Both the position numbers and the translations under genes were made by a program. Below, in pieces: positions 826-54,650 of a stretch of 64,000 bases of DNA. The notes beneath the pieces are model-generated. The model ran no database searches. It had not been told where the DNA came from and was given only the letters and a program-made list of their open reading frames with translations. Origin of the DNA: Acidobacteriota bacterium (GTDB lineage Bacteria; Acidobacteriota; JAAYUB01); assembly GCA_018001935.1 (NCBI GenBank), contig JAGNHB010000018.1, positions 14,286-78,285 of the forward strand, read 5' to 3'. Numbering within the stretch: the first letter of the stretch is position 1; every line of letters begins with the position of its first letter.

Positions 826-1050
826 TCGGTATCGGTATCGGTATCGGAATCGCCATCGGTATCGCTTTCGGTATCGCAATCGCCATCGATATCGGAATCG
901 GTATCGGTGTCGCAATCGCAATCGGTGCCGCCTGTTCCCCGGTCTGGAAGCCTAGATAGCGACAGCGACTGCGATACCGATACCGAATTCCGACCCCGAT
1001 AGCGATTCCGACCCCGATACCGGTGGGGTATCGGGGGAACCCCTCTCTGA
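826..1050. repeat. composite tandem-repeat element: inverted arrays of hexamers (CGGTATC/GGAATCG versus CGATACC/CGATTCC) forming a long imperfect hairpin
   Basis: read directly: ggtatcggtatcggtatcggaatcgccatcggtatcgc ... gcgataccgataccgaattccgaccccgatagcgattccgaccccgataccggtggggtatcgggggaacccctc. Confidence 0.85.
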
Positions 1051-1082
1051 AAAAACAGACTATAGCACGAGAAGGGGGGGCA

Positions 1083-1895
1083 TCACAAACCCCATCCCGA
1101 GCCCTGGGGCTCGTGGCCCCACCGTTCCTGGATCTTCCGCTCCAGGTAGCCGAAGACCAGGCGGTCGGCCAGCAGGCCCAGGAGCATGATGACGCCCATG
1201 ACGGCCACCACCTGGGGCATGTCGTGCAGTTCCCGCCCCGTGGTCAGCAGGGCGCCGAGGCCGGTGTCCACGTAGAGCAGCTCGGCGGCCATGAGGGAGC
1301 GCCACGCGAAGGACCACCCCATCTTGGCGCCGGTGACCACGGCGGGGAGGGACGCGGGGAGCACCACGTGGAGGTAGGCCTGCCGCGCGCCGGCGCCCAG
1401 CATGCGGGCCGCGCGAAGGTAGAGGGGCGGGATGGCCCGGACGCCGTCGCGCACTGACAGGGTGAGGGCCATCAGGGAGCCCATGACCACCACGAAGAGC
1501 ATCCCCTCCTCGCCCAGGCCGAACCACAGGATGGCCAGGGGGAGCCAGCAGATGCTGGGGATGGCCTGGAGGCCCAGCGCCAGGGAGCCGATGGTGGCGT
1601 CGGCCCACCGGACGCGCCCCAGGAGGAGGCCCAGGGGAACGCCGCCCGTCACGGACAAGGCGTACCCCAGCAGGAGCCGCTGCAGGCTGGCTGCCGCGGC
1701 CGCCGGGTAGCTCCCGTTGGCGAACCCCGTCCAGAAGGACTGCGCCACCTGGAGCGGCGAGGGGAAAAGCACGGGGTCCCAGATCCGGGCGGCGTGGAGG
1801 CCGTGCCAGAGGAGGACCAGGCCCCCGAAGAAGCCGACCTGCAGCAGGGCCCGGCCGAGACGTCCGCGGCTTTCCCCGGCGCGCGCGGTGCTCAT
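1083..1895 (-). CDS. ABC transporter permease (NitT/TauT family, SsuC-like)
   Basis: multi-TM permease with the ABC-2/BPD signature region; start overlaps upstream ATPase stop (ATGA). Confidence 0.8.
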   Translation of the reverse strand: MSTARAGESRGRLGRALLQVGFFGGLVLLWHGLHAARIWDPVLFPSPLQVAQSFWTGFANGSYPAAAAASLQRLLLGYALSVTGGVPLGLLLGRVRWADATIGSLALGLQAIPSICWLPLAILWFGLGEEGMLFVVVMGSLMALTLSVRDGVRAIPPLYLRAARMLGAGARQAYLHVVLPASLPAVVTGAKMGWSFAWRSLMAAELLYVDTGLGALLTTGRELHDMPQVVAVMGVIMLLGLLADRLVFGYLERKIQERWGHEPQGSGWGL

Positions 1896-2695
1896 GACCC
1901 GCCTCCCGCCGCCGGTGCCGAGGCCTCCGGCGCAACGGCCCCCGGGCCGGCCTGGGAACGGAGGTCGTCCCGAATCACGGAGGCGATCCGCACCAGCTCC
2001 ACGTCCTCGAGGTGGCGTCCGCGGGGGAGGTCGACCGGGTACTCCCGGTGGATCGACCCGCCCCGGACGGACATCAGGATCACCCGCTCACCGAGCCGGA
2101 CGGCCTCGCGGACGTTGTGGGTCACGAAGATCACCGTCTTGCGGGTGGTCTGCCAGATCCGCTCCAGTTCCTCGTGGAGTTCGTCGCGGGTCTGGGCGTC
2201 CAGGGCGGCGAAGGGCTCGTCCATGAGCAGGATCTCGGGGTCCTTGGCCAGGGCGGCGGCCAGGGCGACCCGCTGGCGCATGCCGCCCGAAAGCTCGTGA
2301 GGCCAGGCCCGGGCGAAGTCGGTCAGCCCCACCGTGCGGAGGAGCGAGTGGGCCCGCTCGGTGCGCTCCCGGGGGGGAAGGCCCGCCATGCGCAGGGCGA
2401 AGGCCACGTTCTGCGACGCGTTGAGCCAGGGGAAGAGGGGCGGTTCCTGGAAGATCATCCCGCACTCGCGCGAGGGTCCCGTGACGGGGACGCCGCCGAT
2501 GCGGACCTCGCCCCGGTCGGGCTTCTCCAGCCCGGCGACGAGATTGAGGAGGGTGGACTTGCCGCAGCCCGAGGACCCCACCACGCAGAGGAACTCCCCC
2601 GGGGCCATCGACAGGGTGACGTCCGTGGCGGCCGGCACGGGGCCGGAGCGCTGCTGGAAGCTCTTGGAGATGTGGTCGAGTTCGACGCGTTTCAA
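1892..2695 (-). CDS. ABC transporter ATP-binding protein (SsuB/TauB-like)
   Basis: Walker A GSSGCGKST, signature LSGGMRQRV, Walker B LLMDEPF; start inferred (TTG near 2695), while the longer upstream ORF extension is high-GC read-through. Confidence 0.75.
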   Translation of the reverse strand: MKRVELDHISKSFQQRSGPVPAATDVTLSMAPGEFLCVVGSSGCGKSTLLNLVAGLEKPDRGEVRIGGVPVTGPSRECGMIFQEPPLFPWLNASQNVAFALRMAGLPPRERTERAHSLLRTVGLTDFARAWPHELSGGMRQRVALAAALAKDPEILLMDEPFAALDAQTRDELHEELERIWQTTRKTVIFVTHNVREAVRLGERVILMSVRGGSIHREYPVDLPRGRHLEDVELVRIASVIRDDLRSQAGPGAVAPEASAPAAGGGS

Positions 2696-2724
2696 AGCTG
2701 CCGCCTGTGCACCGCGGTCCGCCG

Positions 2725-3936: not shown

Positions 3937-6843
<2,907 letters not shown>

Positions 6844-6860
<17 letters not shown>

Positions 6861-7866
6861 GCAGCCGGAACGCGGGGAGGGCGGCGAGCATCCCCTCGTC
6901 CTCCAGGTCGAGGCCGCCCCGTTGCGCCACACGGACGACCCCCGGCATCTCGTGGAACGCGCCCGCGGGGTCGTGCAGCAGGATCTCCGGCCGCTCGTCG
7001 ATTCCGGCCTCGGAGCGGATCTCGGCGAAAATACCCCCGTCCAGGCGGATCTCCTCGTCCAGCGGGGCGCCGGCCACCGTGCGGAGGATGTAGTCCTCCA
7101 GTTTCCGCGGGTTAAGCAGCGCCGTGCGGTGCGAGAATACCGCCGTCAACCGGAAACCCGTCAGGGCCGGGCGGGAAACCGGTCCCCCGGGGGAGGGCGC
7201 CGCGCCGCAGGCCACCGGCGGCACGCTCCCGGTATCGCGTCCGCGGGGCGGGGCGGGGGTGACGGCCCCGGGGCAAGGGCCCGGGGCGCCGGCGTCGCCG
7301 GGGGGGGGCGGGGCACTCCGGCCCCCGTCAGCCCGGGGCGGCCTTTCCCGAAGGCAGAAAACGGTGGTCCGGTGCGGCCCCACGTGCACCCACGCCAGCG
7401 GGACGCCGCCGGGCAGACCGGCTTCCCGCGCCCGCGTCAGCCCCGCCGCCAGGGTGAAGTGCGGGGCGGGGGCGACGAGGGCGCCGGGGAGCTGGCGGAG
7501 CGCCTCGAGCTGGAGACCGGGGAAGGGGCGGTTCCGGTCGTGGTGGTACAGGTCCGCGACGCGACCGCCCGAGTCCAGGACATGGGAGAGGACCTGGCGC
7601 TCCGCGGACGGGGCGGCGTCGTCGAACCCCGGGGGGAGGTCCGAGCAGAGGGCCACGAGGCAGGCCGCGGGGCGTTCCGCCGCCGGCAGGCCCCGAAGGA
7701 AGGCGCCGAGGGGGACGCGTTCCTGCCGGCGGCCCGTTGGCACGCCGGGAGGGTCGAAGGGCGGGGGGCCCGGGAAGGATCGCCGGAAGGCGAGGTCGTC
7801 CTCCCGGACCAGGGTGAAGAGGGTCTCTTCCTCGAACAACCGGATGAGCAGGACGGCACAATCCAT
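6844..7866 (-). CDS. hypothetical protein with internal Pro/Gly-rich low-complexity insert
   Basis: ORF with conserved-looking N- and C-terminal segments; no family recognised. Confidence 0.45.
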
Positions 7867-15437: not shown

Positions 15438-15480
15438 CGTCCCCAGCCGGGGACGGAGCGATCTGTTTTTCCGGGGCAGT
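15438..15480 (+). terminator. rho-independent terminator-like hairpin
   Basis: gctccgtcccc-agcc-ggggacggagc perfect 11-bp stem followed by gatctgttttt. Confidence 0.6.
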
Positions 15481-15660
15481 CAGAGCCGCGCGCGTAAGCA
15501 AGCGGCCATTTCTCCCTCAGAGCCGCGCGCGTAAGCAAGCGGCCATTTTCCCCTCAGAGCCGCGCGCGTGAGCAAGCGGCCATTTTACCTTCGTAAGCAA
15601 GCGTAAGAATTTCCATGATTTACCGCTCCCTAACGGTCGCGGCTCTGACTGTTTCCCGGA
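15470..15660. repeat. three tandem copies of an approximately 42-bp unit (cagagccgcgcgcgtaagcaagcggccatttt...) closed by an inverted arm (ggtcgcggctctg)
   Basis: read directly; the unit core GCCGCGCGCGTAAGCAAGCGG also occurs at 37012 and 52911. Confidence 0.8.
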
Positions 15661-20299: not shown

Positions 20300-20400
20300 G
20301 GGAGGGTGCCCGACACGGAAATGGAACCACGAAATACACGGAAGACACGAAAGGGAAAAGAACCACGAACCACACCAACCACACGAACCGCCTCCGCGGT
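20300..20400. repeat. CACGAAC/ACCACACGAAC short tandem repeat block
   Basis: ggaaccacgaaatacacggaagacacgaaagggaaaagaaccacgaaccacaccaaccacacgaacc; related blocks at 46560-46640 and 63240-63300. Confidence 0.7.
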
Positions 20401-20619: not shown

Positions 20620-20680
20620 GCAGCCGCTGAAGCGCCTACCAGCCTTCAGCCTAACAGCCTTCAGCCTATCTCGCCTCCCC
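20620..20680. repeat. CCTTCAGCCTAACAG heptamer-pair repeat overlapping the stop of the 20666 gene
   Basis: cgcctaccagccttcagcctaacagccttcagcctatctcgcc; the TAG stop is inside cagcctatc. Confidence 0.8.
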
Positions 20681-21496
20681 CGCGAGGACCACGTCGGCGG
20701 GAAGGGCGCCGGAAGAAAGGGCCGTGGCCAGGACCCGGGCGTCCAGGAGGGACGGCAACCCGGAGATCATCCCCTGGTCGGTTATCCGGTCGCGGATGAC
20801 GGGGACGGAGAGGGCCCGGCCGTCCAGGACGATGGCCAGCCCCCGGCCGAGGCTCTTCGAGGTGGCGTCCCCGAAGATTCTCGCACCGGCAGGGTCCAGC
20901 GTGAACAGGATGACCGGCCGGCCGTAGGCGTTCTCCGGGGTATCGACCCGGGCGTCCTTCAGGTGCTCCCCGACGAGGACCGGCAGGGATTCCACCAGGA
21001 CGAACAGCCGCTCGGCCTCCCTCCCCTCGCCGACGAAGGGGACCGCCACGTAGCCGGCCGGGTGCTTTCCCTTGAACCGGGCCCGCAACTCGGCTTCCGG
21101 GAGCGGGCCCGGCGCCTCCGGGTGGGCGAGGTGAAACGACAGCAGGGCGCGGGTCGTCAGGAGACGTTGCACCGCCTCCCGGTCGACGGGGGCGTGGAGA
21201 AACACCCGCAGCCGATCCCGGCTTCCGGGTGCCCGGAAGACCTGGGCCTGCTGGCCGTATCGTTCCAGGCGGGACCTCAGGACGGCGCAGGTCCGGTCGA
21301 GGGTGCGGGTGACGGCTTCGGCGGAAAGGGCCGGGTCGAGCCTTACCTCCAGTTCGAGGCGGACCGACGCCTTTTTCCCGCCGGTCGTCGCCTGCGGCGT
21401 GCCGGGCGCTTCGCCGCCGTGCTCGGCTAGAGCCCCGGCCCACAGGGTCGCGCCGAAGAGGATCGCCGCCAATCCATGGAGCCCGTTTCTGTTCAT
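20666..21496 (-). CDS. periplasmic protein resembling the SecD P1-head domain, with no SecD/SecF membrane domain
   Basis: signal peptide MNRNGLHGLAAILFGATLWAGALA; C-terminal LAIVLDGRALSVPVIRDRITDQGMISGLP...SGALPADVVL matches the SecD periplasmic head consensus; GGGGAGG RBS; the ORF continues upstream only as read-through. Confidence 0.6.
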   Translation of the reverse strand: MNRNGLHGLAAILFGATLWAGALAEHGGEAPGTPQATTGGKKASVRLELEVRLDPALSAEAVTRTLDRTCAVLRSRLERYGQQAQVFRAPGSRDRLRVFLHAPVDREAVQRLLTTRALLSFHLAHPEAPGPLPEAELRARFKGKHPAGYVAVPFVGEGREAERLFVLVESLPVLVGEHLKDARVDTPENAYGRPVILFTLDPAGARIFGDATSKSLGRGLAIVLDGRALSVPVIRDRITDQGMISGLPSLLDARVLATALSSGALPADVVLAGEAR

Positions 21497-23540: not shown

Positions 23541-23672
23541 GAAAAGGACAAAAGGACCAAAAGGACATAAAGGACGGCACGGAGGGCAAACGGGTTACCC
23601 TGCGGACGCCCCTGCCCCCACCTGCTGTTATGAAGTCCTTTAAGTCCTTTAAGTCCTTCAAGTCCTTCCCGG
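23541..23672. repeat. inverted pair of AAAGGAC heptamer arrays with an approximately 56-nt loop
   Basis: ggaaaaggacaaaaggaccaaaaggacataaaggacgg ... gtcctttaagtcctttaagtcctttaagtccttcaagtcc. Confidence 0.85.
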
Positions 23673-23766
23673 GCGAAACGGTCCCGTGGGGGGAAGGCGG
23701 GAAAGCCACCGGCCTGGCCGCGTCGCGGCTGCAGGAACAGAAGCCGCCCCCCTCCCTCGGCCGCCG

Positions 23767-23845
23767 CCCCGATCGCCGCCGCCCATCGTCGCCCCCCGAT
23801 CGCCGCCGCCCATCGTCGCCCCCCCCGATCGCCGCCGCCCGCTGA
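23767..23845. repeat. three tandem copies of an approximately 28-bp unit CCCGATCGCCGCCGCCCATCGTCGCCCC
   Basis: read directly in the 5' region of the 23915 gene. Confidence 0.85.
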
Positions 23846-23914
23846 AAATGTTTGGCCGGTCCGGCGTTTTGTACTATCATGACTTGGAAAATTCGACGGT
23901 TGCGGGGAACGGCC

Positions 23915-26241: not shown

Positions 26242-26475
26242 ATGGTTCAAGCACTGAAGGAAAAAACGACGGTTCAGGCCGGAGGAACCATTCATCTTGA
26301 AATCCCGGGGCTTACTCCGGGAACACCCGTTGAAGTCGTCGTTTATATCGAAAGCAATTCAACCCCGAAGAAAAACTCTCTTGCAAACAGGGTCGGATCC
26401 GCCAAGGGAGGGTTTTATTCACCCGAAGCGGTTGACGGGTTTCTGTCACAGGAGCGCGGTGCGTGGGAAGATTGA
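26242..26475 (+). CDS. vapB: type II antitoxin VapB-like
   Basis: small ORF MVQALKEKTTVQAGGTIHLEIPGL... immediately upstream of and overlapping a PIN gene. Confidence 0.7.
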   Translation: MVQALKEKTTVQAGGTIHLEIPGLTPGTPVEVVVYIESNSTPKKNSLANRVGSAKGGFYSPEAVDGFLSQERGAWED

Positions 26476-31572: not shown

Positions 31573-31639
31573 GGGATTCCCCTTGATTTCAGTGTTCGGC
31601 GATTCGGTGGCGCGAGAACGAAGTCAGGAGTCAGGAGGA

Positions 31640-31815
31640 AGAGGAGGGATGGGAATAGTGGGAGTTATGGGAATTCTGGGAGTTGTCAAGATGTGGGAGG
31701 AAAGGGGAGAGAAAGGGGCAAGAAGAGGCAAGAACCCCCCAGGCTCCCGCAATTGCCACGAATCCCATAATTCCCATAACTCCCATCATTCCCATCATTC
31801 CCATTCTCCCCTCAC
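31640..31815. repeat. inverted pair of 9-nt tandem arrays (GGGAATGAT/GGGAGTTAT versus CCCATAATT/CCCATCATT) between the ATPase and permease genes
   Basis: gggaatagtgggagttatgggaattctgggagttg ... cccataattcccataactcccatcattcccatcattccc. Confidence 0.85.
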
Positions 31816-32539: not shown

Positions 32540-32925
32540 CTCCACTCGGAGCTGTTTTTCGATGGGCATGGGATGTTTATCGGAGTCGGAAAAGGACGAA
32601 AGGACCAAAAGGACCAAAAGGACCAAAGGGACGGCAAGAACCGAAAAACATGAAAGATATGAAAGACATGAAAGACATGATCCCCAACCTCCAGCCCTGG
32701 CCTTCCGCCTTGTGTCTGCAACATCTTTCCGCCTCGTGTCTCCGACAAGCCTTCCGCCTCGTGTCTCCCGCAAACCTTCCGCCTGTTTCCCTTGCGATGC
32801 CGATTGCGATGCCGATTGCGACTGCGATTGCGACTGCGATTGCGATACCGATACCGATACCGATTCCGACCCCGATGGGAAGATCCCCGGACCTTCAGCC
32901 TAACAGCCTTCAGCCTAACAGCCTA
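32540..32925. repeat. composite repeat element: AAAGGAC x5, ATGAAAGAC x3, approximately 21-nt CCTTCCGCCTCGTGTCTCC x3-4, GATKGCGA/GATACC hexamer array, CCGATGGGAAGATCCCCGGACC linker, TTCAGCCTAACAGCC x2
   Basis: read directly; fills the whole 390-bp spacer between macA and the ATPase gene; the macA TAG stop lies in the terminal cagcctac. Confidence 0.9.
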
Positions 32926-34176: not shown

Positions 34177-34339
34177 GTCTCACCCCCGCACGTCTCAATA
34201 CGCAGATCCCGTGCCAAAAACCGGGCATCGACCCCCTCTCTCGGCCGCCGTCAAATTCCGGGTTCAGACCGCCTCCGCCACCCGAAGTTCTCTAAATGTG
34301 AAAAACGTGAAGTTTAGACAATCGATCCCGCCTTCTGCG

Positions 34340-34389
34340 CCTTCTGTGTATTCTGCGGTCCCAGGCCGCGGAATACGCAGAACATACGG
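34340..34389. repeat. closely spaced inverted pair of the GCAGAATACGCAGAACA motif (hairpin, no ORF between)
   Basis: ccttctgtgtattctgcggtccc-agg-ccgcggaatacgcagaacatacgg. Confidence 0.7.
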
Positions 34390-34662
34390 AAAGCGATTCG
34401 CCTGCGAACGGGGACTCCGCCGGAAGGGGTGTCCGGTTCCGGGACGGGCTGTCCCGAAAGCGGACACTTTCTGGGGGCCCTCCCGCAAACTCTTCGATTT
34501 TCGGGGCCGTCTCCGGGTATAATAGGCCCGTAGGATCGATCGAAAAGGGGGGGAATGCCCGGGGGCCGGGCCGTTCAAGGTTTGGAACCGCCCCGGGTCG
34601 TGGGGCGGGCGGTCCTGGATCGCCCGGTTGCCCGTGTCCACCCCCTCGGGTCAGGATGGTTT

Positions 34663-41513: not shown

Positions 41514-41628
41514 GAACAGCCGCACAAAACCCGAAAAAAAACTCGGAATTTCTTCCGCAGAAACGTTGATATAGGAGGGAGTGATTGCCCTGAGGTCATG
41601 ATTCTTCCCGTCGGCGATGATCTGTTCT

Positions 41629-41655
41629 GAACCGCAGAATACGCAGAACACGCAG
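41629..41655 (+). repeat. left inverted repeat GAACCGCAGAATACGCAGAACACGCAG flanking the GxxExxY gene
   Basis: about 21/27 identity to the reverse complement of 42328-42354. Confidence 0.7.
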
Positions 41656-41806
41656 ATGTAGAAGTGTAGCGATTATAGGGTTTGAGGATGGAAAGAGGTG
41701 ATGCCAGAGATGAGAAGAGAATTCGTGAAGGGGGTGGAAGAGATTTGAAAGATGTGGGAAGTGGGCCGGAGGAGGGTGTGAAAAGAACTTGAGGAAGAGG
41801 AGGTGG

Positions 41807-42262
41807 ATGATGGGGGTCAGGCAGAGTGCTTCCGATTCGGACGGTTTTCCTTTGAAAGACGAGGGATACGCAATCCTGGGTGCCGTGTTTGAAGTGTACA
41901 AGGTGATGGGGTGTGGTTTCCTTGAGGCTGTTTACCAGGAGTGCCTCGAGTACGAGTTCGAAGACCGGGGAATTCCCTTCGAGGCGAACCCGAACCTCAC
42001 CATCGATTTCAAGAAGCGACGCTTGAAGAGGAAATATCAACCTGATTTTCTGTGTTTCAGCCAGATTGTGGTGGAACTCAAAGCGGTCTCGGCGCTGATT
42101 CCCGAGTATCGTGCCCAGCTTCACAATTACTTGAAAGTTTCCGGCATGACCGTCGGTTACCTTGTCAATTTCGGGCATTTCCCCCTTGTGGAATACGAAC
42201 GCATCATCCGGACCGACCCGGAGAAGGGACGCCAAAACGGGAGCACGAACGGGGAACCGTGA
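41807..42262 (+). CDS. GxxExxY family protein (PD-(D/E)XK nuclease superfamily)
   Basis: LKDEGYAILGAVFEVYKVMGCGFLEAVYQECLEYEF...QPDFLC...IVVELKAV; strong GAGGAGG RBS; AT-richer flanks. Confidence 0.75.
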   Translation: MMGVRQSASDSDGFPLKDEGYAILGAVFEVYKVMGCGFLEAVYQECLEYEFEDRGIPFEANPNLTIDFKKRRLKRKYQPDFLCFSQIVVELKAVSALIPEYRAQLHNYLKVSGMTVGYLVNFGHFPLVEYERIIRTDPEKGRQNGSTNGEP

Positions 42263-42327
42263 TGGCCTTCCGATGACACCATCTCCGTCTCTCAGATAGA
42301 CCGAAAAAATAGATAATATAACTCTTT

Positions 42328-42354
42328 CTGCTTATTCTGCGTATTCTGTGGTTC
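42328..42354 (-). repeat. right inverted repeat (reverse complement GAACCACAGAATACGCAGAATAAGCAG) flanking the GxxExxY gene
   Basis: ctgcttattctgcgtattctgtggttc; overlaps the stop codon of the sensor kinase gene. Confidence 0.7.
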
Positions 42355-43774
42355 ACTCAGGATTGGGCGGGGGGGGAGGTGCTGGGGCGGGGAGGGCGGG
42401 GATGCGGACCCGGAACACCGCCCCCTGGCCCGGCTCGCTCTCCACTTCCACGCTCCCCCGGTGCAGCTCCACCAGGTCCTTGACGATGGAGAGCCCCAGG
42501 CCCGTGGAGTGCTCGCCGCCCGTCGGCCGGGCGCTGAGGCGCTGGAATCGCCCGAAGACCCGCTCCCGGTCGCCCTCCGACAGGCCGGGCCCCCGGTCGT
42601 GGACCTCGAAGCGGACTTCCCCGTTCTCCCGGCACAGCCGCAGGAAAATCACCCCCCCCGGCGGCGAGAACTTGACGGCGTTGCTCACCAGGTTGTCCAT
42701 GACCTGCTGGAGGCGCAGCCGGTCCCCCCGCACGCGACACCCCTCCCCGGGCTCCAGCACGAGGGTCTGCCCCTTTCGCGCCGCCAGCGGCCGGTTGAGG
42801 CTGACCACCGACTCCGCCAGCGGCCCCAGGAGCAGTTCCTCCTCCACCAGCTGGAGGCGGCCGGTGTCGATGACCACGGTGTCCAGCAGCTCGTTGATGA
42901 GGGTCACCATCTTCTCGGAGGCGCTGATGATCATCTCCAGCTGTTCGATCCCCTTCCGGTCTTCCTTGATCCGCCGCCGGAGAAGTTTCGAGAACCCGGT
43001 CACGACCTGGAGCGGGTTCTTCAGGTCGTGGGCGGCGACGGCGAGGATGGAACTCTTGAGGTCGTTCACCTGCCGAAGTTCCTCGTTGGTCCGCCGCAGC
43101 TCGTCGGCCGTGGTCTCCAGGCTCCGGTTGGCCTCCATGAGCTTCAGCTGCACCCGTTGGAGCTGGATGTTGCTCAGGTGGATGGTCTGCTGGGCGACGA
43201 AGTTGTCGCGGCGGGCCCGTTCGAGGAGAACGGCCGCCACGACGGCGATGAGCGTCGCCTCGGCGAAGTTGAACAGCCCGTAGAGCCGCTGGGGGGTGTC
43301 GAAGCGCATCCCCCGGCACAGGCCAAGGGCGGCGAAGAGGGCGATGGAAAGGGCGATCAGCCACAGGGAATTCTTGCGGCCCAGGGGCGCCATGGGGAGG
43401 ATCAGCAGGATGATGCTGAAGCCGCCGAGGTACACGGGGTCGCCGCCCACCAGCCCGAGGATGGCGCCGGCCGAGAGGTTCAGGTAGGCGAAGAGGGCCA
43501 GGAGGAGGACGTGGCTGTTCTCGCGGACCCGGGGGAGGGCCAGCAGGGCGAGGACGCCGGCCCCGACGACGGTGAGGCCGAGCCTCAGGGCGGTCACGAG
43601 GTCGTTGCCGGGGAAGAGATGGCGGTCCACCAGGAGGAAGGGGATCCAGGCCGCCAGGGAGGCCAGGGCGGCGGGCAGCACCAGGGGCCGGCTCAGGCGC
43701 TCCAGGTCCATCCCGAAGGCGTAGTCGCCGAACAGTTCCTCGTGCCCCGCGAGGTCGGGCGCGTCGTCGTGCAT
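42353..43774 (-). CDS. membrane sensor histidine kinase (orphan, no cognate regulator adjacent)
   Basis: 6 TM helices, coiled coil, HisKA AHDLKNPL, HATPase_c N/G boxes (HDRGPGLS, GLGLSIV); ATG at 43774 with GGAGG RBS. Confidence 0.8.
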   Translation of the reverse strand: MHDDAPDLAGHEELFGDYAFGMDLERLSRPLVLPAALASLAAWIPFLLVDRHLFPGNDLVTALRLGLTVVGAGVLALLALPRVRENSHVLLLALFAYLNLSAGAILGLVGGDPVYLGGFSIILLILPMAPLGRKNSLWLIALSIALFAALGLCRGMRFDTPQRLYGLFNFAEATLIAVVAAVLLERARRDNFVAQQTIHLSNIQLQRVQLKLMEANRSLETTADELRRTNEELRQVNDLKSSILAVAAHDLKNPLQVVTGFSKLLRRRIKEDRKGIEQLEMIISASEKMVTLINELLDTVVIDTGRLQLVEEELLLGPLAESVVSLNRPLAARKGQTLVLEPGEGCRVRGDRLRLQQVMDNLVSNAVKFSPPGGVIFLRLCRENGEVRFEVHDRGPGLSEGDRERVFGRFQRLSARPTGGEHSTGLGLSIVKDLVELHRGSVEVESEPGQGAVFRVRIPALPAPAPPPPPNPE

Positions 43775-43949
43775 GACCGGGATTTCCTCCCCGTGGGCGG
43801 CCGCGATCCCGGATTTCACGCCGGGCGGCTCCCGGCGGCCGCGCCTGTCCGAATTGTACCCCAGAGTCGAGGGCTTGTTCAACCGGTCTGAAAAGCCCGC
43901 AACGTTGACCGTTCCTGCGCTCGTGCCGCCTCCCTGGCGATTCGTTTTC

Positions 43950-44300
43950 CTTCGCGATCTTGGCGCCTTGGCGAGAGCCGACCCGGATCTTGATCTCGTA
44001 AAGGCGCAAAGATCGCAAAGGAAGACTGCAAAAGGAAGGGAGAAGATCGAGGGTTGCGGGCTGTAGTCGACAAGGGGGCCGCCGATCCCGGTCGCGAGCG
44101 CGTCCCCGGTCGAGTGCGACAGCGCGTGCGAGTGCGGCTGCGACAGCGCATGCGATTGCGATTGCGATTGCGATTGCGACGGCGATTGCGACGGCGATTG
44201 CGATACCGATAGCGATTGCGATACCGACCCCGATACCGATACCGACCTCGATGGGAACCCCTCCGGACCTACAGCCTACAGCCTATAGCCTACAGCCTAA
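43950..44300. repeat. composite repeat element: GCAAAG block, long GCGAYWGCGA/GATACC hexamer array, CTCGATGGGAACCCCTCCGGACC linker, CCTACAG x4
   Basis: read directly; lies immediately downstream of the 44312 gene. Confidence 0.9.
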
Positions 44301-44311
44301 CCCGGCGGCGG

Positions 44312-45715
44312 TCAGGCGGGGTCGAGTTCGGAGCAGAACGGGACCACCTTTCCGCCCGGTTGGTCGTCACCGAGGCGCTCGTCGATGCGGACGGTGATCC
44401 TGACCCCCTTCCCGAAAAGCGCCCGGAGCCGCTTCGCGATGGCGGCGGGGTCCAGGGGGCAGCCCGGGGCGGGGCGGAGGGCGAGGGTGCACGACCCGTC
44501 GCGGTGCTGCACGAACGCGTGCTGCAGGACGATCCACTCCCGGATGACCCGGCCGATGTCCACCGGCCCCACCCGGCTGCCGTCCGCCGCGCGGAACGTC
44601 ACCGGGGCCCGGGCCTGGAGGTCCAGCAGGCGCGGGACGGGGTCGGCCCCCGGCGGGTCGCTCCAGGAGAGGCGGGCGACGTCGCCGGTCCGGTAACGGA
44701 GCAGTGGGAGGTAGGGGTTTCGCCCGCCGGTGACGCTGATCTCGCCCGGTTCACCCTCGGGGACGGGTCGGCCGTCCGCGTCCACGATCTCGACGTAGAG
44801 GTCGGCGGGCAGGAGGGTGAAACCGGGGGCGTCGGGGGCGGCGTAGCCGATGACGCCGGTCTCCGTAGTGGCGTAGGTGTCGATCACCGGACAGCCGTAC
44901 GCGTCCTCCAGTCGCCGCTTCAGGCCGGAATCCAGGGCGACCGCCGAGCTGATCATGGCGGCGGGCTTCACCGGGATTTCCCAGGCCAGCAACCGGGCGT
45001 ATCCCAACGGGTCGCCCGTCAGGAAGAGGGGCGCAAGGTCCGCGAGGAAACGGCGGGCCGCCGCGGGGGTCCAGGCATGCGGGTGCAGGTTGACCTTGGC
45101 GAAGGCGGCGTTGCCCCATACCGCGAAGACGGTGGCAAAGACGACCGTGGTTCGGTGGGCGCTGAGGTTGACGCAGGCCGTGACCGTCTCGTCGAAGGAA
45201 AGCCGGACGCCGTGGCGTTCCAGCACGAATTCCAGGAAGGCGTGGTTCGTCGCCATGGTGACGGGGTGGTGGGGGACGTAGAGGGCGTGGCCGGTCACCC
45301 CCGAGGTCTCGTAGGTGATGAGGCGGGAAAGGTCGGCGTCGCGGGGAACGATCCGCTCGAGGCGGGCGGCGAGGTCCGCACGGCGCATCGTGGGTACCCG
45401 GGCCCAGTCGCGGGCCAGATTCAGCCCTTTCGGCAGCGCGTCCGCGAACCAGGGCGAGCGGCGGCGCATCGCCCGCGCCCAGGCGCGGATCGCGGCCGGG
45501 GGGCGGCCGTCGCCGGGGCGGCGGCCTTCCCGGATCGACCGGCGCACGACGTCCACGGCGGGGAGGTCTCCCGGGAGCAGCCGGTCGCCGGTGGCGAAGT
45601 TCCACGCCGGGGCGTCGGGGTGCTGGAGAATCCCCCGGAGCCGCTCCCAGGCCCCGACCGTGATCAGGGGGTTTCGCTCTCTCTGCTCAGCGGGGATGAA
45701 CTGTTCCGTCTCCAT
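44312..45715 (-). CDS. phenylacetate-CoA ligase-like adenylate-forming enzyme (PaaK/CapK/F390-synthetase family)
   Basis: adenylation-domain core YETSGVTG (AMP-binding TSGTTG-like); other conserved segments match the family only loosely; ATG at 45715. Confidence 0.7.
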   Translation of the reverse strand: METEQFIPAEQRERNPLITVGAWERLRGILQHPDAPAWNFATGDRLLPGDLPAVDVVRRSIREGRRPGDGRPPAAIRAWARAMRRRSPWFADALPKGLNLARDWARVPTMRRADLAARLERIVPRDADLSRLITYETSGVTGHALYVPHHPVTMATNHAFLEFVLERHGVRLSFDETVTACVNLSAHRTTVVFATVFAVWGNAAFAKVNLHPHAWTPAAARRFLADLAPLFLTGDPLGYARLLAWEIPVKPAAMISSAVALDSGLKRRLEDAYGCPVIDTYATTETGVIGYAAPDAPGFTLLPADLYVEIVDADGRPVPEGEPGEISVTGGRNPYLPLLRYRTGDVARLSWSDPPGADPVPRLLDLQARAPVTFRAADGSRVGPVDIGRVIREWIVLQHAFVQHRDGSCTLALRPAPGCPLDPAAIAKRLRALFGKGVRITVRIDERLGDDQPGGKVVPFCSELDPA

Positions 45716-45789: not shown

Positions 45790-45900
45790 GAAAAAAACAG
45801 GCGATCTCAACCTCTCGCGAAGGCGCAAAGCCGCCAAGCCTCGCAAAGTCGGAACCGGGAAAAGAGGGACCTTTGCGAAGCTTTGCGTCTTCGCGCCTTT
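45790..45900. repeat. GCGCAAAG-type inverted repeats
   Basis: gaaggcgcaaagccgccaagcctcgcaaagtc ... cctttgcgaagctttgcgtcttcgcgcctttgcg. Confidence 0.7.
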
Positions 45901-45954
45901 GCGTGAAACCGAGGAAACGATCCTCGTCCAGGGTTGTTCAGAGACCAATCGCCT

Positions 45955-46539
45955 CTACCAGTCGCTCGCGGCCCGGGCGGCGGCTTCCCGGGCCTTCTCC
46001 GCCCGGAGGCGTTCCCGCAGTTCCCGCGCCCGCTCCTGCTGGGCCCGGGTGGCTTCGATGAGCTGCGCCCGGCGGACGCTGTCGAGGGTGGCGAGGCGGT
46101 CCGCCGCCTGCTCCATCGTCTCGCCCGGCGGTTCGATCCCCAGCGACCGCAGGCAGAGGCGAACCAGCTCCTCCCGACGGTCCGGGTCCCCGACGAAGGC
46201 GTCGGCGTTGACCACGGTCGCCAGTTCCCTCAGGCGATCGTCGAGGAAGGCCTGGACGCGGGCGGGCGGGGGCGGTGGCTGCCGGAGGCTCTCGTCCGCC
46301 AGGAGCCAGCAGCCGACCAGCACCAGCCGGAGCCAGTCGCGGTCGCCCTTGCCAGGCCCCGTGAAGGCGCGGAGTTCCAGTTCGGAGAGTGACACGCCCG
46401 CCAGGTCGAGGACCAGGTCGTGCACCACGGCGTCCACCCGGACGGCGCCCTTCCCCCGCAGGCAGGGCTCCGCCAGGAAGTCCGGGGGGCACTCGCTCAG
46501 TCGGTGCATCAGGCGGTCCAGGGACATCTCAGGAAGCAT
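45955..46539 (-). CDS. hypothetical protein with C-terminal coiled coil
   Basis: ATG at 46539 (MLPEMSLDRLMHRLSE); no family recognised. Confidence 0.45.
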   Translation of the reverse strand: MLPEMSLDRLMHRLSECPPDFLAEPCLRGKGAVRVDAVVHDLVLDLAGVSLSELELRAFTGPGKGDRDWLRLVLVGCWLLADESLRQPPPPPARVQAFLDDRLRELATVVNADAFVGDPDRREELVRLCLRSLGIEPPGETMEQAADRLATLDSVRRAQLIEATRAQQERARELRERLRAEKAREAAARAASDW

Positions 46540-46559
46540 GCCAACCTCACTCGGAGTAT

Positions 46560-47030
46560 AAACCAAGAACCACACGAAACAGCGACCACGAAACACTTGA
46601 AAACGGAACCGCAAACCGCACGAAAGAGAACCGCCCCTTGTTTGTCGGGAAGGCGGACCGAATTCCCGCGAAGAAACAGGACAGGCCGGAAATCAACCGC
46701 TCGAGGGCGTTCTGGTTTTCCGGGAAAGGACGAAAGGACTTAAAGGACCAAAACGACCCAAAGGACAGGGTGGGCGGCCACTTTTTCTCCGCGGTCCGGT
46801 TCGGGGATCCCGCACCGTGATCCGTTTCTTCTCATCGCTCCCCTTCATCCCCTTCATCCCCTTCATCCCATTCATCCCATTCATCCCATTTATCCCATTT
46901 ATCCCATTCATCCCATCATTCCCATTCTCCCCACTCTCTGCTTTCTTCTCTCTTTTTCTTTGCTTTCTTTGCTCTCTTTGCTTTCTTTGCGGTTTCTGCT
47001 CTCTTTGTGGCTTCCCCCGGTTTCGCGCCC
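46560..47030. repeat. composite repeat region: CACGAAC block, AAAGGAC x5, CCCATTCAT 9-mer x10, CTTTGCTTT array
   Basis: read directly. Confidence 0.9.
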
Positions 47031-47031
47031 G

Positions 47032-51409: not shown

Positions 51410-51499
51410 GGGGCCCTCCGTCTTTTTCGATGTTCCGCGGACACCATCGAACGACCGTCATTCGTCGCTCACCGGTGCTTCCTTCGGGGTTGGTTTCGC

Positions 51500-51830
51500 T
51501 GTCACCGGCGGTTTCGAGGCGAAAGGACGAAAGGACCAAAAGGACCCAAAGGACCAAAAGGACCGCGACAAGCCGGTGCCGGATGCAACGAGACCGTAAC
51601 CGGCATTGCCATCGCTGTGGGTATCGCTGTCGCCGTCGTCGCTGTCGCCGTCGTCGCAGCCTCCGATCCCGTCTCCCTCATCGTCAGCCCCTGGCCGTCC
51701 TTTGCGTCCCTTTGGTCCCTTTGGTCCTTTCGTCCTTTGATTCCGACCTCGATCCCGATTGCGACAGCGACCCCGATCCCAACCCCGATGGAAAATCCGA
51801 AAAGAACCGGTGTACGTCCCGAAACATAGG
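51500..51830. repeat. composite repeat element: AAAGGAC array, GC-rich hexamer block, inverted GTCCTTT array, GATYCCGA hexamers, CCCCGATGGAAAATCCG linker
   Basis: read directly upstream of the AAA+ gene. Confidence 0.85.
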
Positions 51831-52115
51831 GCGAATCCGCCGGGATGTCAACGCGAAAACGGGTCGTAACCCATTCCGGACAGGGGAGGTCGGAACCACG
51901 GACCACACGCAAGAGAAAGGTTGTTCTGCCTGTTCTCTGTCCGTGAAGTTTTGCCGAGGCACGAGTGAGGATTATCCTAATTTGTGGCTCGAAATACGGT
52001 GGGCATCGCGATACAATGAATCTTGAAGAAAAATGGGGAGGATGTTCGGGCTGCGAAACAAAGAGGGACCACTTTCTTTCGGTCGGAGAAGTTTGAACCG
52101 CACGAGGTGAAGTTC

Positions 52116-52415
52116 ATGTTGGAGATTGACAAGATCAAACCAGAGATCGCCGCCCTCTGCAAGCGCTTGTATGTCAGGCGCCTGGAACTTTTCGGCTCGG
52201 CGGTTACGAAGGAGTTCGGTCCGGGGAGCGATGTGGACTTTCTTGTCGAATTCGACCGGGGAAAGGGGGATCTCTTCAACTGGTTTTTTGAGTTGAAAGA
52301 GGAGCTGGAGAGACTGGTATCAAGGCCGGTGGATGTCATCGTCACAGACGCGATCCGGGATTCTTTCTTCAGGAAAGTGATAGAGCAAACCCGGACGTTG
52401 CTGTATGCCGCTTGA
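52116..52415 (+). CDS. minimal nucleotidyltransferase (MNT) antitoxin
   Basis: LELFGSAVTKEFGPGSDVDFLVEF nucleotidyltransferase-fold motif (GS...DxD); ORF may begin at 52023. Confidence 0.7.
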   Translation: MLEIDKIKPEIAALCKRLYVRRLELFGSAVTKEFGPGSDVDFLVEFDRGKGDLFNWFFELKEELERLVSRPVDVIVTDAIRDSFFRKVIEQTRTLLYAA

Positions 52416-52617
52416 GATCAAGAAAACTCTTTTTGACATCGTGGCTCCCTCTTTGTTTTCAAGGATTACAAACGCCCAGCGGATTGCAGGCTTCCGCAAT
52501 ATTATCGCCCACGGATACGATGCGGTCGATGAAGCCATTGTCTGGGAGGCGGCTACCGTCCACTTGCCAATTCTGAAGGCGGAAATCGAGCACTGGATGG
52601 AGGCTGACGAGAGGTGA
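52405..52617 (+). CDS. HepT-like (DUF86) toxin, apparently short or N-terminally truncated
   Basis: Rx4HxY motif RNIIAHGYD; only 70 codons versus about 115-140 typical. Confidence 0.5.
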   Translation: MPLEIKKTLFDIVAPSLFSRITNAQRIAGFRNIIAHGYDAVDEAIVWEAATVHLPILKAEIEHWMEADER

Positions 52618-52865
52618 ACCTGATGCAGGAATTCGAGGTGGCGGTGGAGAAGGGGGAGGACGGCAGCTACCGCGCGTCCGTTCCCGGTCTGCCGGGCTGC
52701 GAAGCCCGGGCGAAGAACCTGGAGCAGTTGATGCCCCGGGTGCGCCAGGCTGTCCTGTCCCGGCTCGCGGAGGAAGGCGGCGGGCCCGGCGCCGGGGACG
52801 AGCTCGTGTTGCGGGTGTCCATCTCGCTGCCCGCGCCCTGGGCCCCCTTCCCGCGCGAGTGCTGA
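52614..52865 (+). CDS. HicB-family antitoxin-like protein (no HicA found)
   Basis: EFEVAVEKGEDGSYRASVPGLPGCEARAKNLEQL matches the HicB N-terminal consensus. Confidence 0.6.
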   Translation: MNLMQEFEVAVEKGEDGSYRASVPGLPGCEARAKNLEQLMPRVRQAVLSRLAEEGGGPGAGDELVLRVSISLPAPWAPFPREC

Positions 52866-52910
52866 GACGTTCGCCGCGGGGGCGGCCATCCGGCAGGTCG
52901 GAAACCAGCC

Positions 52911-52940: not shown

Positions 52941-52969
52941 ATCTGTTATTTACCACTTGGAGGTGCGTA

Positions 52970-54199
52970 ATGGTGAGACGGAGCGTGTTCCGCGTTTCGG
53001 CGGTCGGCGTGTGCCTGCTGCTGGCCGTCCTGGCCGCGACCCCGTGCCCGGCCCAGAAAAAGGCCGCCACGGCCCCGCCAAAGCCGGCCCCCGCCGCGCA
53101 GAAAGCGACCCCGGCCGCGGCCCCGGAGAAGATCGTGCCGTGTCCGCCCGACTTTGTGCTGGAAAAAGAACTCCCCGGCGAGGACCCCTTCTGGGTCTAC
53201 CGGCCCACCTTCTCGCCGGACGGCCTCACCGCCGCCGGTTTCCTCCACTCCAGCCACAAGATCCTGATCTGGGACCTCAAGACGGCGAAGGTGATCAAGG
53301 AGTACGACGAGTCGGTCCACGGCATGCCGGCCCTGGACGGGTTTGAGTACACCGCGGACGGCAAGATGCTGATCCTGATCTACCGGGACCTCCCGCTGAA
53401 GTTCCTGGACCTCGCCGCGGGGAAGGTGGTCCGCACCCTGCCCACCGCGGCGGACCCCAAGAAGGTCTACGACTACGCCTTCAGCCCGGACATGAAGCTC
53501 CTGGCCTTCGGGACCACCACCGGCATCAAGCTGTGGGACCTGGAGAAGGGCGCCCAGATCGCCACGTACCTCGACGGGAAGACCGTCAGCGGCCTGGACA
53601 TCGTCTACTACAAGACGAAGGAGGGCAAGCTCGTCCGACTCATGGCCTACGGGCTGTTCCTGGGGAAAGGGGCCGAGTTCCGCGACGTGGCGGGGATCAT
53701 CGATCTCGACACCGGGGCGGTGAAGCCGGTCCTCAACGACGTTCCGAAGGAGAAGGTGAAACTGGGCGACATGACCCTCTTCTGGGTCTCCTTCGAGCAC
53801 GGCGGCGGCTACCTGATGGTGGGCTACTCGGTCTTCCCGCCCCAGGTGACCGCGGGCGTCTACCTGGTGGGGACGGCCACCGGCAAGTACCTGGCCGACC
53901 ACGCCCTGGAGCAGTACATCCTGATGTACGACGCCTGCTACCTCTGGAAGCCCTTCTACGGCTATCTGGTCTGCACCAGGAACATGAAAGTGGACCCCTA
54001 CAAGGTGAGCACGGAGTTCCTGGTGATCACGAAGACGGACGGGCTCACGGCCATCGACTGCACCCGCGAGGACAAGCTGGCGGTGCAGTCCGTCACCGTC
54101 GCCCGGGACCAGTCCCGGGCGCTGATCGCCACCAAGGCCTCCCAGGCGGCCCCCAGCAAGGTGTACCTGTACCGCCTGGTGCCCAAGACGCCGAAGTAG
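52970..54199 (+). CDS. secreted WD40/beta-propeller-like protein
   Basis: signal peptide MVRRSVFRVSAVGVCLLLAVLAATPCPA; repeated LxxWDL/FSPD blade-like motifs; GGAGG RBS. Confidence 0.65.
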   Translation: MVRRSVFRVSAVGVCLLLAVLAATPCPAQKKAATAPPKPAPAAQKATPAAAPEKIVPCPPDFVLEKELPGEDPFWVYRPTFSPDGLTAAGFLHSSHKILIWDLKTAKVIKEYDESVHGMPALDGFEYTADGKMLILIYRDLPLKFLDLAAGKVVRTLPTAADPKKVYDYAFSPDMKLLAFGTTTGIKLWDLEKGAQIATYLDGKTVSGLDIVYYKTKEGKLVRLMAYGLFLGKGAEFRDVAGIIDLDTGAVKPVLNDVPKEKVKLGDMTLFWVSFEHGGGYLMVGYSVFPPQVTAGVYLVGTATGKYLADHALEQYILMYDACYLWKPFYGYLVCTRNMKVDPYKVSTEFLVITKTDGLTAIDCTREDKLAVQSVTVARDQSRALIATKASQAAPSKVYLYRLVPKTPK

Positions 54200-54213
54200 T
54201 GGCGCAAGCCAAA

Positions 54214-54240
54214 GTGGTGGCGCAAGCTTCAGCTTGCGCG
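54214..54240 (+). terminator. hairpin gcgcaagc-ttca-gcttgcgc after the 54199 gene (no T-tract)
   Basis: perfect 8-bp stem; between convergent genes. Confidence 0.35.
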
Positions 54241-54494
54241 GGAACTCAATCGGCGGCTCTCTGTCTCCGGAAGGCCTTTCCCGGCCGCTGCCGCCCAGAT
54301 CGGACCGATCGGTCGGATCCGACGGATCGGTCCGATGCTGCCCCTCCCCGTCCTCGGCCGTTCAGGCTCCGGCGGCGTGCGGGTCCTTCGCAACCCGGGC
54401 CGTCTGGGGCCGACCGCGCCGCTCCGCGGACTGCGCGGCGCGGGGAAAGCGGCGCTCCGGCAACCTGCGCACCGCACTCCGCAGCGGAGACGGC

Positions 54495-54650
54495 GGCGGC
54501 GATCCCGATTGCGACAGCGATCCCGATTACGACAGCGAGAGCGATTGCGATACCGATACCGATACCGATGGGAACCCCTCCGGACCTACAGCCTACAGCC
54601 TTCAGCCTTCAGCCTTCAGCCTAAACCCCTTCAGCCTATCCCCTACCTTC
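54495..54650. repeat. composite repeat element: GATCCCGATTGCGACAGC hexamer array, CCGATGGGAACCCCTCCGGACC linker, CCTACAG/CCTTCAG heptamers
   Basis: read directly; the giant gene's TAG stop lies in the terminal ccctacc. Confidence 0.9.

Follow-up and report, generated by a model that had tools for sequence, protein, structure and literature searches.

The 64,000-nt window analysed in this study (positions 14,286 to 78,285 of the forward strand of contig JAGNHB010000018.1, from the Acidobacteriota bacterium assembly GCA_018001935.1) carries intergenic arrays of short tandem repeats. These arrays are read here, with a probability of roughly one half, as lineage-specific hairpin elements similar to the intervening sequences (IVS) of 23S rRNA, with arms composed of tandem 6-9-nt units and with most copies being gene-less or solo. 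In its complete form such an element would consist of a small gene between two inverted arms. The gene found here belongs to GxxExxY, a PD-(D/E)XK nuclease family, and in other bacteria the cassette gene may also be one for the PF05635 four-helix-bundle 'IVS protein' (IVP). One copy in the window appears complete, and most others would represent gene-less hairpins, solo arms or concatenated arms of several families. Three features are unusual here: how densely the arrays occur, how many unit families are concatenated in fixed order, and their link to GxxExxY/IVP cassettes.

Array content of the window

The window has a G+C content of 69% and a uniformly positive GC skew, is approximately 16% non-coding, and carries the majority of its genes on the minus strand. 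Genes were called by codon usage and third-position GC content (GC3) and then checked with Pfam. Scans of the window gave no tRNA, rRNA or Rfam match. Arrays were scored with Tandem Repeats Finder (TRF; period 5-12, score of at least 40), using 20 first-order Markov (Markov-1) randomisations as controls. The arrays cover 1480 nt of the window, compared with 0-103 nt in the randomised sequences, and 1310 of the array bases fall within 10,358 non-coding nt versus 170 within 53,642 coding nt, a roughly 40-fold non-coding enrichment. Fourteen of the 26 spacers of at least 100 nt contain arrays.

The original prediction, which was made from the sequence alone, claimed 14 or more loci while listing 13. 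Short-period arrays are present at these loci, with TRF arrays at 826-1022, 6663-6852, 20328-20389, 20634-20670, 23542-23667, 31649-31804, 32590-32925, 44111-44299, 46724-47007, 51522-51777, 54499-54638 and 63262-63285, and an imperfect GCAAAG hairpin at 45813-45906 for the locus given as 45790-45900. Two related loci had been missed: the arms at 41628-41656 and 42327-42355 around a GxxExxY gene, and a mini-hairpin at 34326-34400. The view that the spacers consist almost entirely of arrays was overstated, since TRF covers only 10-53% of the affected spacers.

The repeated units are grouped into families A to I, with lower-case letters (b, c, d, e) denoting the inverted arm of a family. The units are CACGAA N2-3 for family A, AAAGGAC N1-2 for B, TCCCATTCA or ATTCCCAT for C, GCAAAG for D, GTCAGACCT for G and GAAAGACAT for H, and family I is a 25-mer. 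Family E is composed of the hexamers GCGACA, GCGATT and CCGATA, and family F of the units CCTACAG, CCTTCAG and CCTAACAG.

A GxxExxY gene between inverted arms

The complete cassette is located at 41628-42355 on the plus strand and is composed of a 29-nt arm (GAACCGCAGAATACGCAGAACACGCAGA), a GxxExxY/PDDEXK_3 gene (41789-42262) and an inverted arm that is 90% complementary to the first. The gene product matches PF13366 (E 1.9e-37) and TIGR04256 (E 5.6e-38). The flanking inverted-repeat score of this locus is 20 (z 13), and 31 ordinary window genes used as controls score at most 11 in the same flanking-arm test. Together with 12 loci from plasmids, metagenomes and viral contigs, the window cassette forms a comparison set of 13 independent GxxExxY loci, nine of which exhibit flanking inverted arms (score 13-36, z 5-28) made of two or three units of NNACRCRGAA. 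The arm-flanked loci include the Acidobacteria window, metagenome contigs, Bernardetia and Bacteroides finegoldii, an association of gene and arms that crosses phyla and spans organisms with a GC content of 0.46-0.69. Arms of 28-31 nt are present at other GxxExxY loci, and a tenth locus, from Treponema, has a weaker 11-nt pair. The cassette gene is co-oriented with its neighbours in all seven further examples that have gene calls or annotation, and the gap between arm and gene is 1-35 nt in most strong cases; both features fit co-transcription.

The arms of the cassette also occur without the gene. The A arrays at 20318-20395 and 63252-63292 (GGAACCACGAACCACACGAACCACACGAA), both on the plus strand, are solo copies of the cassette arm, the former aligning with the arms of the L273 and L284 cassettes. 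The A arrays of the window and an array of a sister species align unit for unit with cassette arms, as in TGGAACCACGAAATACACGGAAGACACGAAAGG of the window versus GTAAACCACGGAATACACGGAAAACACGGAAAGG of L273, and arm-derived extensions of database GxxExxY proteins match the A array at 20318-20395. The mini-hairpin at 34326-34400 is of the CGCAGAA cassette-arm type and lacks an ORF (open reading frame), as identified by TRF and arm alignment. When the gene-less hairpins were searched for remains of GxxExxY or PF05635 pseudogenes, there were no credible matches, only those to arm-derived extensions. GxxExxY had no match in the phage collection, and a profile scan of viral contigs identified only two loci.

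A second type of cassette gene was found in metagenome contigs carrying F arrays. Five PF05635 genes (E 1e-14 to 9e-35; contigs L028, L033, L089, L128 and L142) lie between short tandem arrays among the matches listed. The gene in L033 is located between inverted (GGCTGAA)4 and (CCTTCAG)4, the latter being the F unit of the window, and the remaining PF05635 loci have AAGGCAG, AAAGCCT, GGAATG-type or GAAAACAGAAA units. The window itself contains no PF05635 match. To our knowledge, there is no explanation for the very numerous PF05635 proteins that are found outside rRNA. GxxExxY (PF13366) is a very large family with its function listed as unknown (PMC3424549). A literature search confined to one library found no paper describing GxxExxY or PF05635 cassettes bounded by such arrays outside rRNA.

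Several further observations concern the GxxExxY family. Many of the database proteins P0242-P0360 have N- or C-terminal extensions that are translated arm arrays, with matches at window positions 41617-41655, 42325-42351, 20321-20353 and 63259-63297, indicating that gene callers run into the arms. Many GxxExxY genes are found on contigs of 500-1500 nt, which suggests that the arms break assemblies. In locus L077, a GxxExxY gene (51% identical) has a complete palindrome of approximately 105 nt with GCAGAT units on each side (5785-5890 and 6365-6470), so that the repeated unit can be a whole hairpin per side rather than one arm per side. The GxxExxY gene of the Persicobacter plasmid CP012852.1 (L267, 593045-594589) is surrounded by GGGATT/AATCCC heptamer arrays resembling both the C module of the window and the quadruplex-forming GGGAATC and GGGGAYT repeats of Xanthomonas and Nostoc. 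These published heptamer repeats may belong with GxxExxY cassettes. The Treponema cassette also adjoins a Fic gene.

Homology between copies and module order

The five E copies of the window and the copy of a sister species exhibit a single polarity, GCGACA followed by GCGATT and then CCGATA, and end in ...CCGAYNCCGATGGGAA. Three of the five run on into the linker GATGGGAANNNCYCCGGACCT, which is found exactly three times (0.29 expected), at 32874, 44250 and 54567, and is followed each time by F heptamers, as had been proposed for several copies. The B copies start alike. The order of modules along the plus strand is fixed in all multi-module spacers as A, B, C or H/I, E, linker and F, and the unpaired arrays all have one common orientation.

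The unpaired multi-module block at 32590-32925 (plus strand, fold z about 0) is composed of B (32590-32632), H (GAAAGACAT, 32643-32680), I (the 25-mer repeated 3.4 times, 32700-32784), E (32792-32873), the linker (32874-32894) and F (32892-32925). The block at 46556-47007 on the plus strand contains A (46556-46634), B (46724-46766), ten C units (TCCCATTCA, 46839-46931) and d as (CTTTGC)n (46935-47007), with no structure. At 43944-44299 on the same strand a d/D hairpin (43944-44026, 33-nt arms) precedes E hexamers (44111-44252), the linker (44250-44270) and F heptamers (44268-44299). The succession of E, linker (54567-54587) and F is repeated at 54499-54645 (plus strand), as identified by TRF and the linker match, and F heptamers (CCTTCAG/CCTAACAG) were identified by TRF at 20634-20670, also on the plus strand. 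The polar E layout, the common linker and the alignment of CACGAA arrays with cassette arms elsewhere support the idea, already put forward in the original prediction, of copied element families. Judged by their sequences, the arrays are families rather than independently slipped microsatellites.

The opposing explanation is that these are ordinary long simple sequence repeats (LSSR) or short tandemly repeated repetitive (STRR) sequences, arising by slippage at each site, selectively neutral, and with neither mobility nor a link to a cassette. The 6-9-nt units, the intergenic bias and the heptamer component all fit this class (PMC4679880, PMC4692102), heptamer arrays of many different units are widespread in metagenomes, and sister species keep an array at the same site with its length changed, the pattern described for Xanthomonas heptamers (PMC4692102). 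Its premise of purely local slippage, in which loci would be homologous in nothing but the unit, conflicts with the polar structure, the linkers and the arms found across organisms: different loci have in common their non-repetitive linkers and the internal succession of unit variants, and GxxExxY genes are surrounded by the same arm sequence in organisms with a GC content of 0.46-0.69. Inverted pairing at eight loci is also unexpected from slippage alone, and no variation in array length was found among three to four samples. Slippage of this ordinary kind is considered unlikely to account for the arrays, and copied hairpin elements are the preferred reading.

A linker scan of the genome collection returned 18 single matches in unrelated taxa, all chance hits in ordinary sequence, and no linker-bearing relative among the GTDB representatives. 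Viral (AAAGGAC)3 arrays (132) were considered as relatives of family B and rejected, as 70 of them lie inside long ORFs encoding collagen-like KGQ repeats and only one has an inverted partner.

Predicted hairpins

The folds of arms and hairpins were compared with shuffled controls and are given as z-scores. Inverted pairing, which the original prediction described as frequent, is real at eight loci (fold z -3.8 to -11), and several multi-module spacers have no inverted partner. The latter, at 32570-32922 and 46528-47031 together with the E-linker-F blocks, are unstructured (z about 0 to +3). The unpaired arrays do not fold because of their essentially three-letter composition, with A and B almost without T, C containing no G and d containing no A.

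The e/E hairpin at 822-1027, between an ABC permease gene and cysC, is formed by the inverted hexamers (TCGGTA)n and then (CGATAC/CGATTC)n with 41-nt arms, and the sense-strand RNA of 815-1045 has a predicted fold of -122 kcal/mol (z -7.9). The four-part composite at 6563-6852 contains a G-rich 14-mer array (6563-6643), a 9-mer array (6657-6765), a C-rich tract and F heptamers (6823-6852), and has fold z-scores of -9.6 and -11.2 on its two strands. Its 9-mer array changes from GTCAGACCT to GTCTGACTT and is self-complementary with 54-nt arms; it folds alone because the unit switches half-way from GTCAGAC to the complement GTCTGAC. The B/b hairpin at 23542-23667 consists of (AAAGGAC)n, a 59-nt loop and (GTCCTTT)n, with z-scores of -3.8 and -6.7 on the two strands. 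Inside the macA-ABC-macB operon, the c/C hairpin at 31638-31806 consists of (ATGGGAAT)n, a loop and (ATTCCCAT)n, with 49-nt arms that are 82% complementary. The D/d hairpin of GCAAAG type at 45813-45906 has 36-nt arms that are 83% complementary (z -3.8 and -3.9). The hairpin at 51479-51793 is nested, with outer E-type arms at 51479-51519 and 51747-51793 and inner B/b arms at 51522-51566 and 51694-51738, and the sense-strand fold of 51470-51805 is -179 kcal/mol (z -8.8).

G-U pairs in the hairpins are approximately twice as common on the gene-sense strand (52 versus 25), a modest hint of selection at the RNA level. This excess bears on the possibility that the arrays act on the chromosome as DNA-level structural elements, either as cruciforms, as G-quadruplexes or as nucleoid-organising sites. 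Family C alone matches the G-quadruplex pattern of at least four G3+ tracts with loops of at most 7 nt, at 31649-31684 on the plus strand (four GGG tracts) and at 46839-46931 on the minus strand (about ten). Its regular GGG tracts resemble the quadruplex-forming GGGAATC and GGGGAYT repeats described in Xanthomonas and Nostoc (PMC4692102). Long, nearly perfect palindromes could also be extruded as cruciforms, and the unpaired arrays share their orientation in a window of uniform positive GC skew. Most other families are without G-tracts, the repeat periods do not keep phase with the helical repeat of DNA, and the sense-strand G-U excess points to RNA rather than DNA. An action at the DNA level is very unlikely on this balance, and hairpin elements acting through RNA are retained as the preferred reading.

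Location of arrays relative to genes

The majority of arrays are located between genes on the same strand, and some lie within operons. In the macA-ABC-macB operon the array-filled spacers measure 353 and 256 nt, compared with 33 and about 100 nt for the array-free spacers of the homologous operon in L264. L264 (P0122) is the best non-self match for the ABC ATPase (77% nucleotide identity) and is used for comparison with an operon free of arrays, rather than taken as a sister genome. The alignment of MacA with its homologue extends through the final residue, which places the start of the F block exactly at the native stop codon.

In four of five cases the TAG stop codon of the upstream gene, which lies on the minus strand, comes from the last unit of the F block (stops at 6844, 20666, 32923 for macA, and 54643). 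Besides macA, the genes concerned are 6844-7866(-), 20666-21472(-) and 54643-60912(-), the last encoding 2090 aa and ending in a degenerate unit. In the fifth case the F block ends 12 nt from the TGA stop codon of gene 44312-45715(-). Read on the strand of the upstream gene, F is (CTGTAGG/CTGAAGG)n and provides a stop in all three frames. In the four genes with stops at 6844, 20666, 32923 and 54643, the terminal TAG has a G after it and keeps the phase of the F heptamer. In so GC-rich a genome the usual stop codon would be expected to be TGA. The F element may supply or replace the stop codon, or may target TAG-G. The abutment of F arrays on stop codons was also tallied in 129 listed metagenome arrays, in which ORFs of at least 100 codons ended in the array 51 times on the stop-rich strand versus 19 on the other. 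This tally was left unused, as the stop-rich strand halts any ORF, real or spurious, and the test is therefore biased.

Two hairpins are located in probable 5' leaders. The first follows a conserved TGCTATAGT motif upstream of cysC, and the second (51479-51793) lies between a promoter-like TTGACA-17-TATGTT site (51851-51823, minus strand) and an ATG at 51409. Such positions raise the possibility that the arrays are cis-regulatory modules maintained by the host, serving as binding arrays for a post-transcriptional regulator of the CsrA, S1 or Csp type, as hairpins that stabilise or process mRNA like those of repetitive extragenic palindromic (REP) sequences and bacterial interspersed mosaic elements (BIME), or as strand-specific insulators against Rho or antisense transcription. 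In addition to the arrays in leaders and intercistronic spacers, this explanation would account for the fixed order A<B<C/H/I<E<linker<F, for the single orientation of the unpaired arrays with their strand-asymmetric, near three-letter composition, for the retention of a hairpin in a sister species despite a changed sequence, and for an F strand that the upstream gene reads with stops in all three frames. Against it, the genes served are functionally unrelated, homologous operons work without arrays, F has no set orientation with respect to the adjacent gene in other contigs, and no candidate binding protein was identified in this analysis. Terminator-like sites are also not enriched (11 versus 10.5 expected, and 9 versus 10.9). 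A function as intrinsic terminators was rejected on this count and because the hairpins are without adjacent T-runs. Likewise rejected was a general rule based on Rho and C-richness, as C-richness on the plus strand is limited to A, C, d, I and F, with E being neutral and neither B nor H being C-rich. Regulatory modules kept by the host are judged to be quite an unlikely explanation, and the IVS-like element is again favoured.

Assembly support and related arrays in other genomes

Across the arrays that they cover, Logan contigs from runs SRR11088395, SRR11088414, SRR11088472 and SRR8648014 match the window with 100% identity. The array at 826-1022 is identical in three independent assemblies, the array at 31638-31806 is identical in SRR11088414, and the cassette at 41628-42355 is identical in four samples. 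The samples are few (three to four), and three of them are from one study series. Short-read contigs stop inside the longer arrays, namely at 6700 (L020), 51559 (L001) and 32620 (L280) of the window. This behaviour is expected of dispersed repeats and is the one point in favour of the arrays being assembly or chimera artefacts of a metagenome-assembled genome, which the original prediction had named as grounds for its own refutation. Base-for-base reproduction in the independent assemblies of four runs refutes this for the three loci named above, and like arrays are present at the orthologous site of a sister species; an artefact is accordingly given practically no credence.

The absence of any length difference among these samples argues against phase-variable behaviour, and a contingency-locus interpretation is further countered by the position of the repeat units mostly outside ORFs and by the unrelated housekeeping genes that they serve. 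The original prediction proposed a comparison of array lengths among related strains as a check for hypervariability; lengths differ at an orthologous site in a sister species and do not vary among the samples.

The sister species is represented by contigs L021 and L022, which encode an 81% identical ligase and exhibit 85-87% nucleotide identity and the same gene order. Their orthologous permease-cysC spacer contains an inverted (ATCGGT)n / (CGATTG, CGATAC)n hairpin that differs in arm lengths (fold z -3.3), and these contigs also begin with a (TTCGTG)n array upstream of ligA. The more distant relative L023 (61% ligase identity) has no arrays. A (CCTWCAG)3 scan of metagenome contigs gave at least 120 contigs with a GC content of 0.31-0.69. 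Among the matches listed, at least 22 contigs contain no fewer than three distinct short-period arrays, for the most part heptamers with differing units, and several have an inverted partner directly after a stop codon. All nine close F pairs listed have the order CTGWAGG, loop, CCTWCAG, with the stop-rich arm first on either strand, and these contigs vary in how F is oriented to the adjacent gene.

Comparison with known repeat elements

The original prediction held that the arrays are not normal for bacteria and match no named element that it recognised, which is not supported. Catalogues of intergenic heptamer-type repeats date back to 1990, and these repeats are over-represented in many bacteria. 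The breadth of the (CCTWCAG)3 matches speaks against abnormality, and the arrangement of hairpin and ORF matches the IVS of 23S rRNA (PMC4990558). Intergenic tandem repeats of 5-11-nt units, with heptamers being commonest, constitute the described LSSR class (Mrazek et al. 2007), the function of which is given as unknown (PMC4679880). The class includes the cyanobacterial STRR heptamers, the GGGAATC of Xanthomonas and GGGGAYT of Nostoc, and the TAACTGA of Beggiatoaceae (PMC4679880, PMC4692102), for the last of which a binding-site array for a post-transcriptional regulator has been proposed (PMC4679880). The study of the Xanthomonas and Nostoc heptamers closes with the role still to be elucidated (PMC4692102).

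The window resembles the LSSR/STRR class in its head-to-tail 6-9-nt units, its strong intergenic bias, the many loci per genome and some inverted pairs, and in having the same spacer occupied at different lengths in a sister species. It differs in concatenating eight or more unit families in fixed order, with non-repeat linkers that are conserved, in affecting about half of the spacers, in periods of 6 and 9 nt that are as common as 7, and in a small-gene cassette link that is absent from the published descriptions found. The window arrays are an extreme and new member, from Acidobacteria, of this described class of 5-11-nt intergenic repeats.

The Coxiella IVS has a 28-bp terminal inverted-repeat stem and an internal S23p ORF, is cleaved by RNase III and has been called a 'selfish element' (PMC4990558). 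Hosts are considered to tolerate such elements because RNase III takes the stem out (PMC4990558). The 29-nt, 90% complementary arms of the window cassette are comparable to such stems of about 28-30 bp around a small ORF, and the PF05635 genes of metagenome contigs lie between the same kind of arrays, F-type heptamers included. The window elements differ in being located between protein-coding genes and not in rRNA helices 9, 25 or 45, in encoding GxxExxY (PF13366/TIGR04256) rather than S23p/PF05635, and in having arms of tandem short units. Most window copies are without an ORF, and RNase III cleavage of the window stems is a prediction only.

REP/BIME elements, and the REP-derived hairpins (REPIN) that are associated with REP-associated tyrosine transposases (RAYT), are likewise extragenic hairpin repeats forming mosaic blocks in intergenic or intercistronic spacers, and the REPIN-RAYT system has a small nuclease-type gene flanked by the inverted repeats that it is thought to disperse (PMC3116915, PMC3733652). 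The window lacks the unitary palindrome of 20-40 bp with a GTAG or CGTC head; its arms consist of tandem 6-9-nt units over 30-100 nt, and GTAG occurs within the arrays only in the F unit. The proteins of the window type are PD-(D/E)XK or four-helix-bundle proteins and not HUH/Y1 transposases, and no transposase or RAYT is present among the window proteins scanned. Miniature inverted-repeat transposable elements (MITEs) with internal minisatellites, described for Porphyromonas gingivalis (PMC4596501), are also non-autonomous repeated intergenic elements containing tandem repeats, and differ in that no terminal inverted repeats bound a defined unit in the window and aligned copies exhibit no recurring boundary or target-site duplication. 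CRISPR arrays have repeats of 24-48 nt with unique spacers of comparable length, in contrast to the strictly contiguous 6-9-nt units of the window.

Proposed mechanism

The elements are located in spacers between genes and between cistrons, in some cases directly abutting a stop codon, where they would be tolerated and transcribed together with the host genes. Inverted pairs are predicted to fold into long double-stranded RNA stems of the type that RNase III cleaves in rRNA intervening sequences, and the unpaired three-letter arrays would remain single-stranded. Array length would shift slowly through replication slippage, and copy number would rise by a copy-paste step that the cassette nuclease may catalyse, as RAYT spreads REPINs. 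A benefit to the host, if there is one, and a role of GxxExxY in these steps are put forward at the same conditional strength.

Several points weigh against this reading. No target-site duplication, transposase or pair of empty and filled sites was found for the window elements, which leaves mobility unproven. Four of the 13 GxxExxY loci are without clear flanking arms, only the A/CGCAGAA arm type is gene-linked in the window, F is gene-linked only in other organisms, and there is no gene-bearing copy of B, C, D, E or G among the data examined. The arrays also flank ordinary genes, and some association between genes and arrays is expected because arrays and small genes both lie in spacers. Unpartnered blocks of F, E and B do not fold into hairpins and are therefore not directly explained by a hairpin mechanism. 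The G-U asymmetry could reflect base composition, and repeated units do not count as independent observations. Finally, the E-linker-F composite is present in none of 129 F arrays from 120 contigs among the matches listed, which makes it specific to the lineage of the window.

Other repeats and genes of the window

A further unit type is represented at 54298-54336, where a nearly perfect palindromic 9-mer array, (GATCGGACC)n, has 19-nt arms that are 95% complementary and no loop; it lies downstream of a plus-strand WD40-like gene. The convergent spacer at 15480-15586 contains a 37-nt unit (TCAGAGCCGCGCGCGTAAGCAAGCGGCCATTTTCCCC) repeated 2.9 times head to tail with 95% identity, and an inverted copy of its first 12 nt (CGCGGCTCTGAC) is located approximately 50 nt further downstream at 15637-15648. 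This repeat is of another kind than the 6-9-nt arrays. At 23762-23840 there are 2.8 copies of a 27-nt unit (CGCCCCCCGATCGCCGCCGCCCATCGT), just upstream of a promoter-like site (23852-23880) of a molybdopterin oxidoreductase gene.

The NAD-dependent ligase gene (3937-6492, minus strand) encodes 851 aa, compared with about 660-700 aa in most homologues and 824-832 aa in the 81%-identical relatives. Its Pfam adenylation domain is split, and a 21-nt repeat is located in the 5' region of the gene at 6397-6481. Patches of lower GC content at 52023-52865, 26243-26900 and 63439-64000 carry toxin-antitoxin-like genes. Among them are an MntA/HepT-like pair, which falls short of the curated cut-offs (E 1e-11 and 3e-8), as well as a HicB-like ORF, a PIN/VapC-like pair and a Fic/DOC-like gene that were assigned by sequence inspection only.

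Significance

The arrays have practical consequences. They break short-read assemblies, with many GxxExxY genes found on contigs under 1.5 kb, and they mislead gene callers, leaving database proteins with arm-translated extensions. Beyond this window, it is possible, and is suggested here only tentatively, that STRR/LSSR-type arrays, those of cyanobacteria, Xanthomonas, Beggiatoaceae and Acidobacteria included, are the arms and the decayed or solo remains of widespread hairpin cassettes whose autonomous forms encode GxxExxY or PF05635. Such cassettes would be dispersed in a REPIN-RAYT-like manner by a different enzyme, would be carried along on host transcripts and would be neutralised when the stem is cleaved, the rRNA IVS being one special case. 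If this link is true, the repeats would be the arms of elements, the small proteins would be element-encoded factors, and rRNA would be only one of many niches into which such intervening sequences insert. The link would thereby offer a testable origin for a long-unexplained class of repeats.

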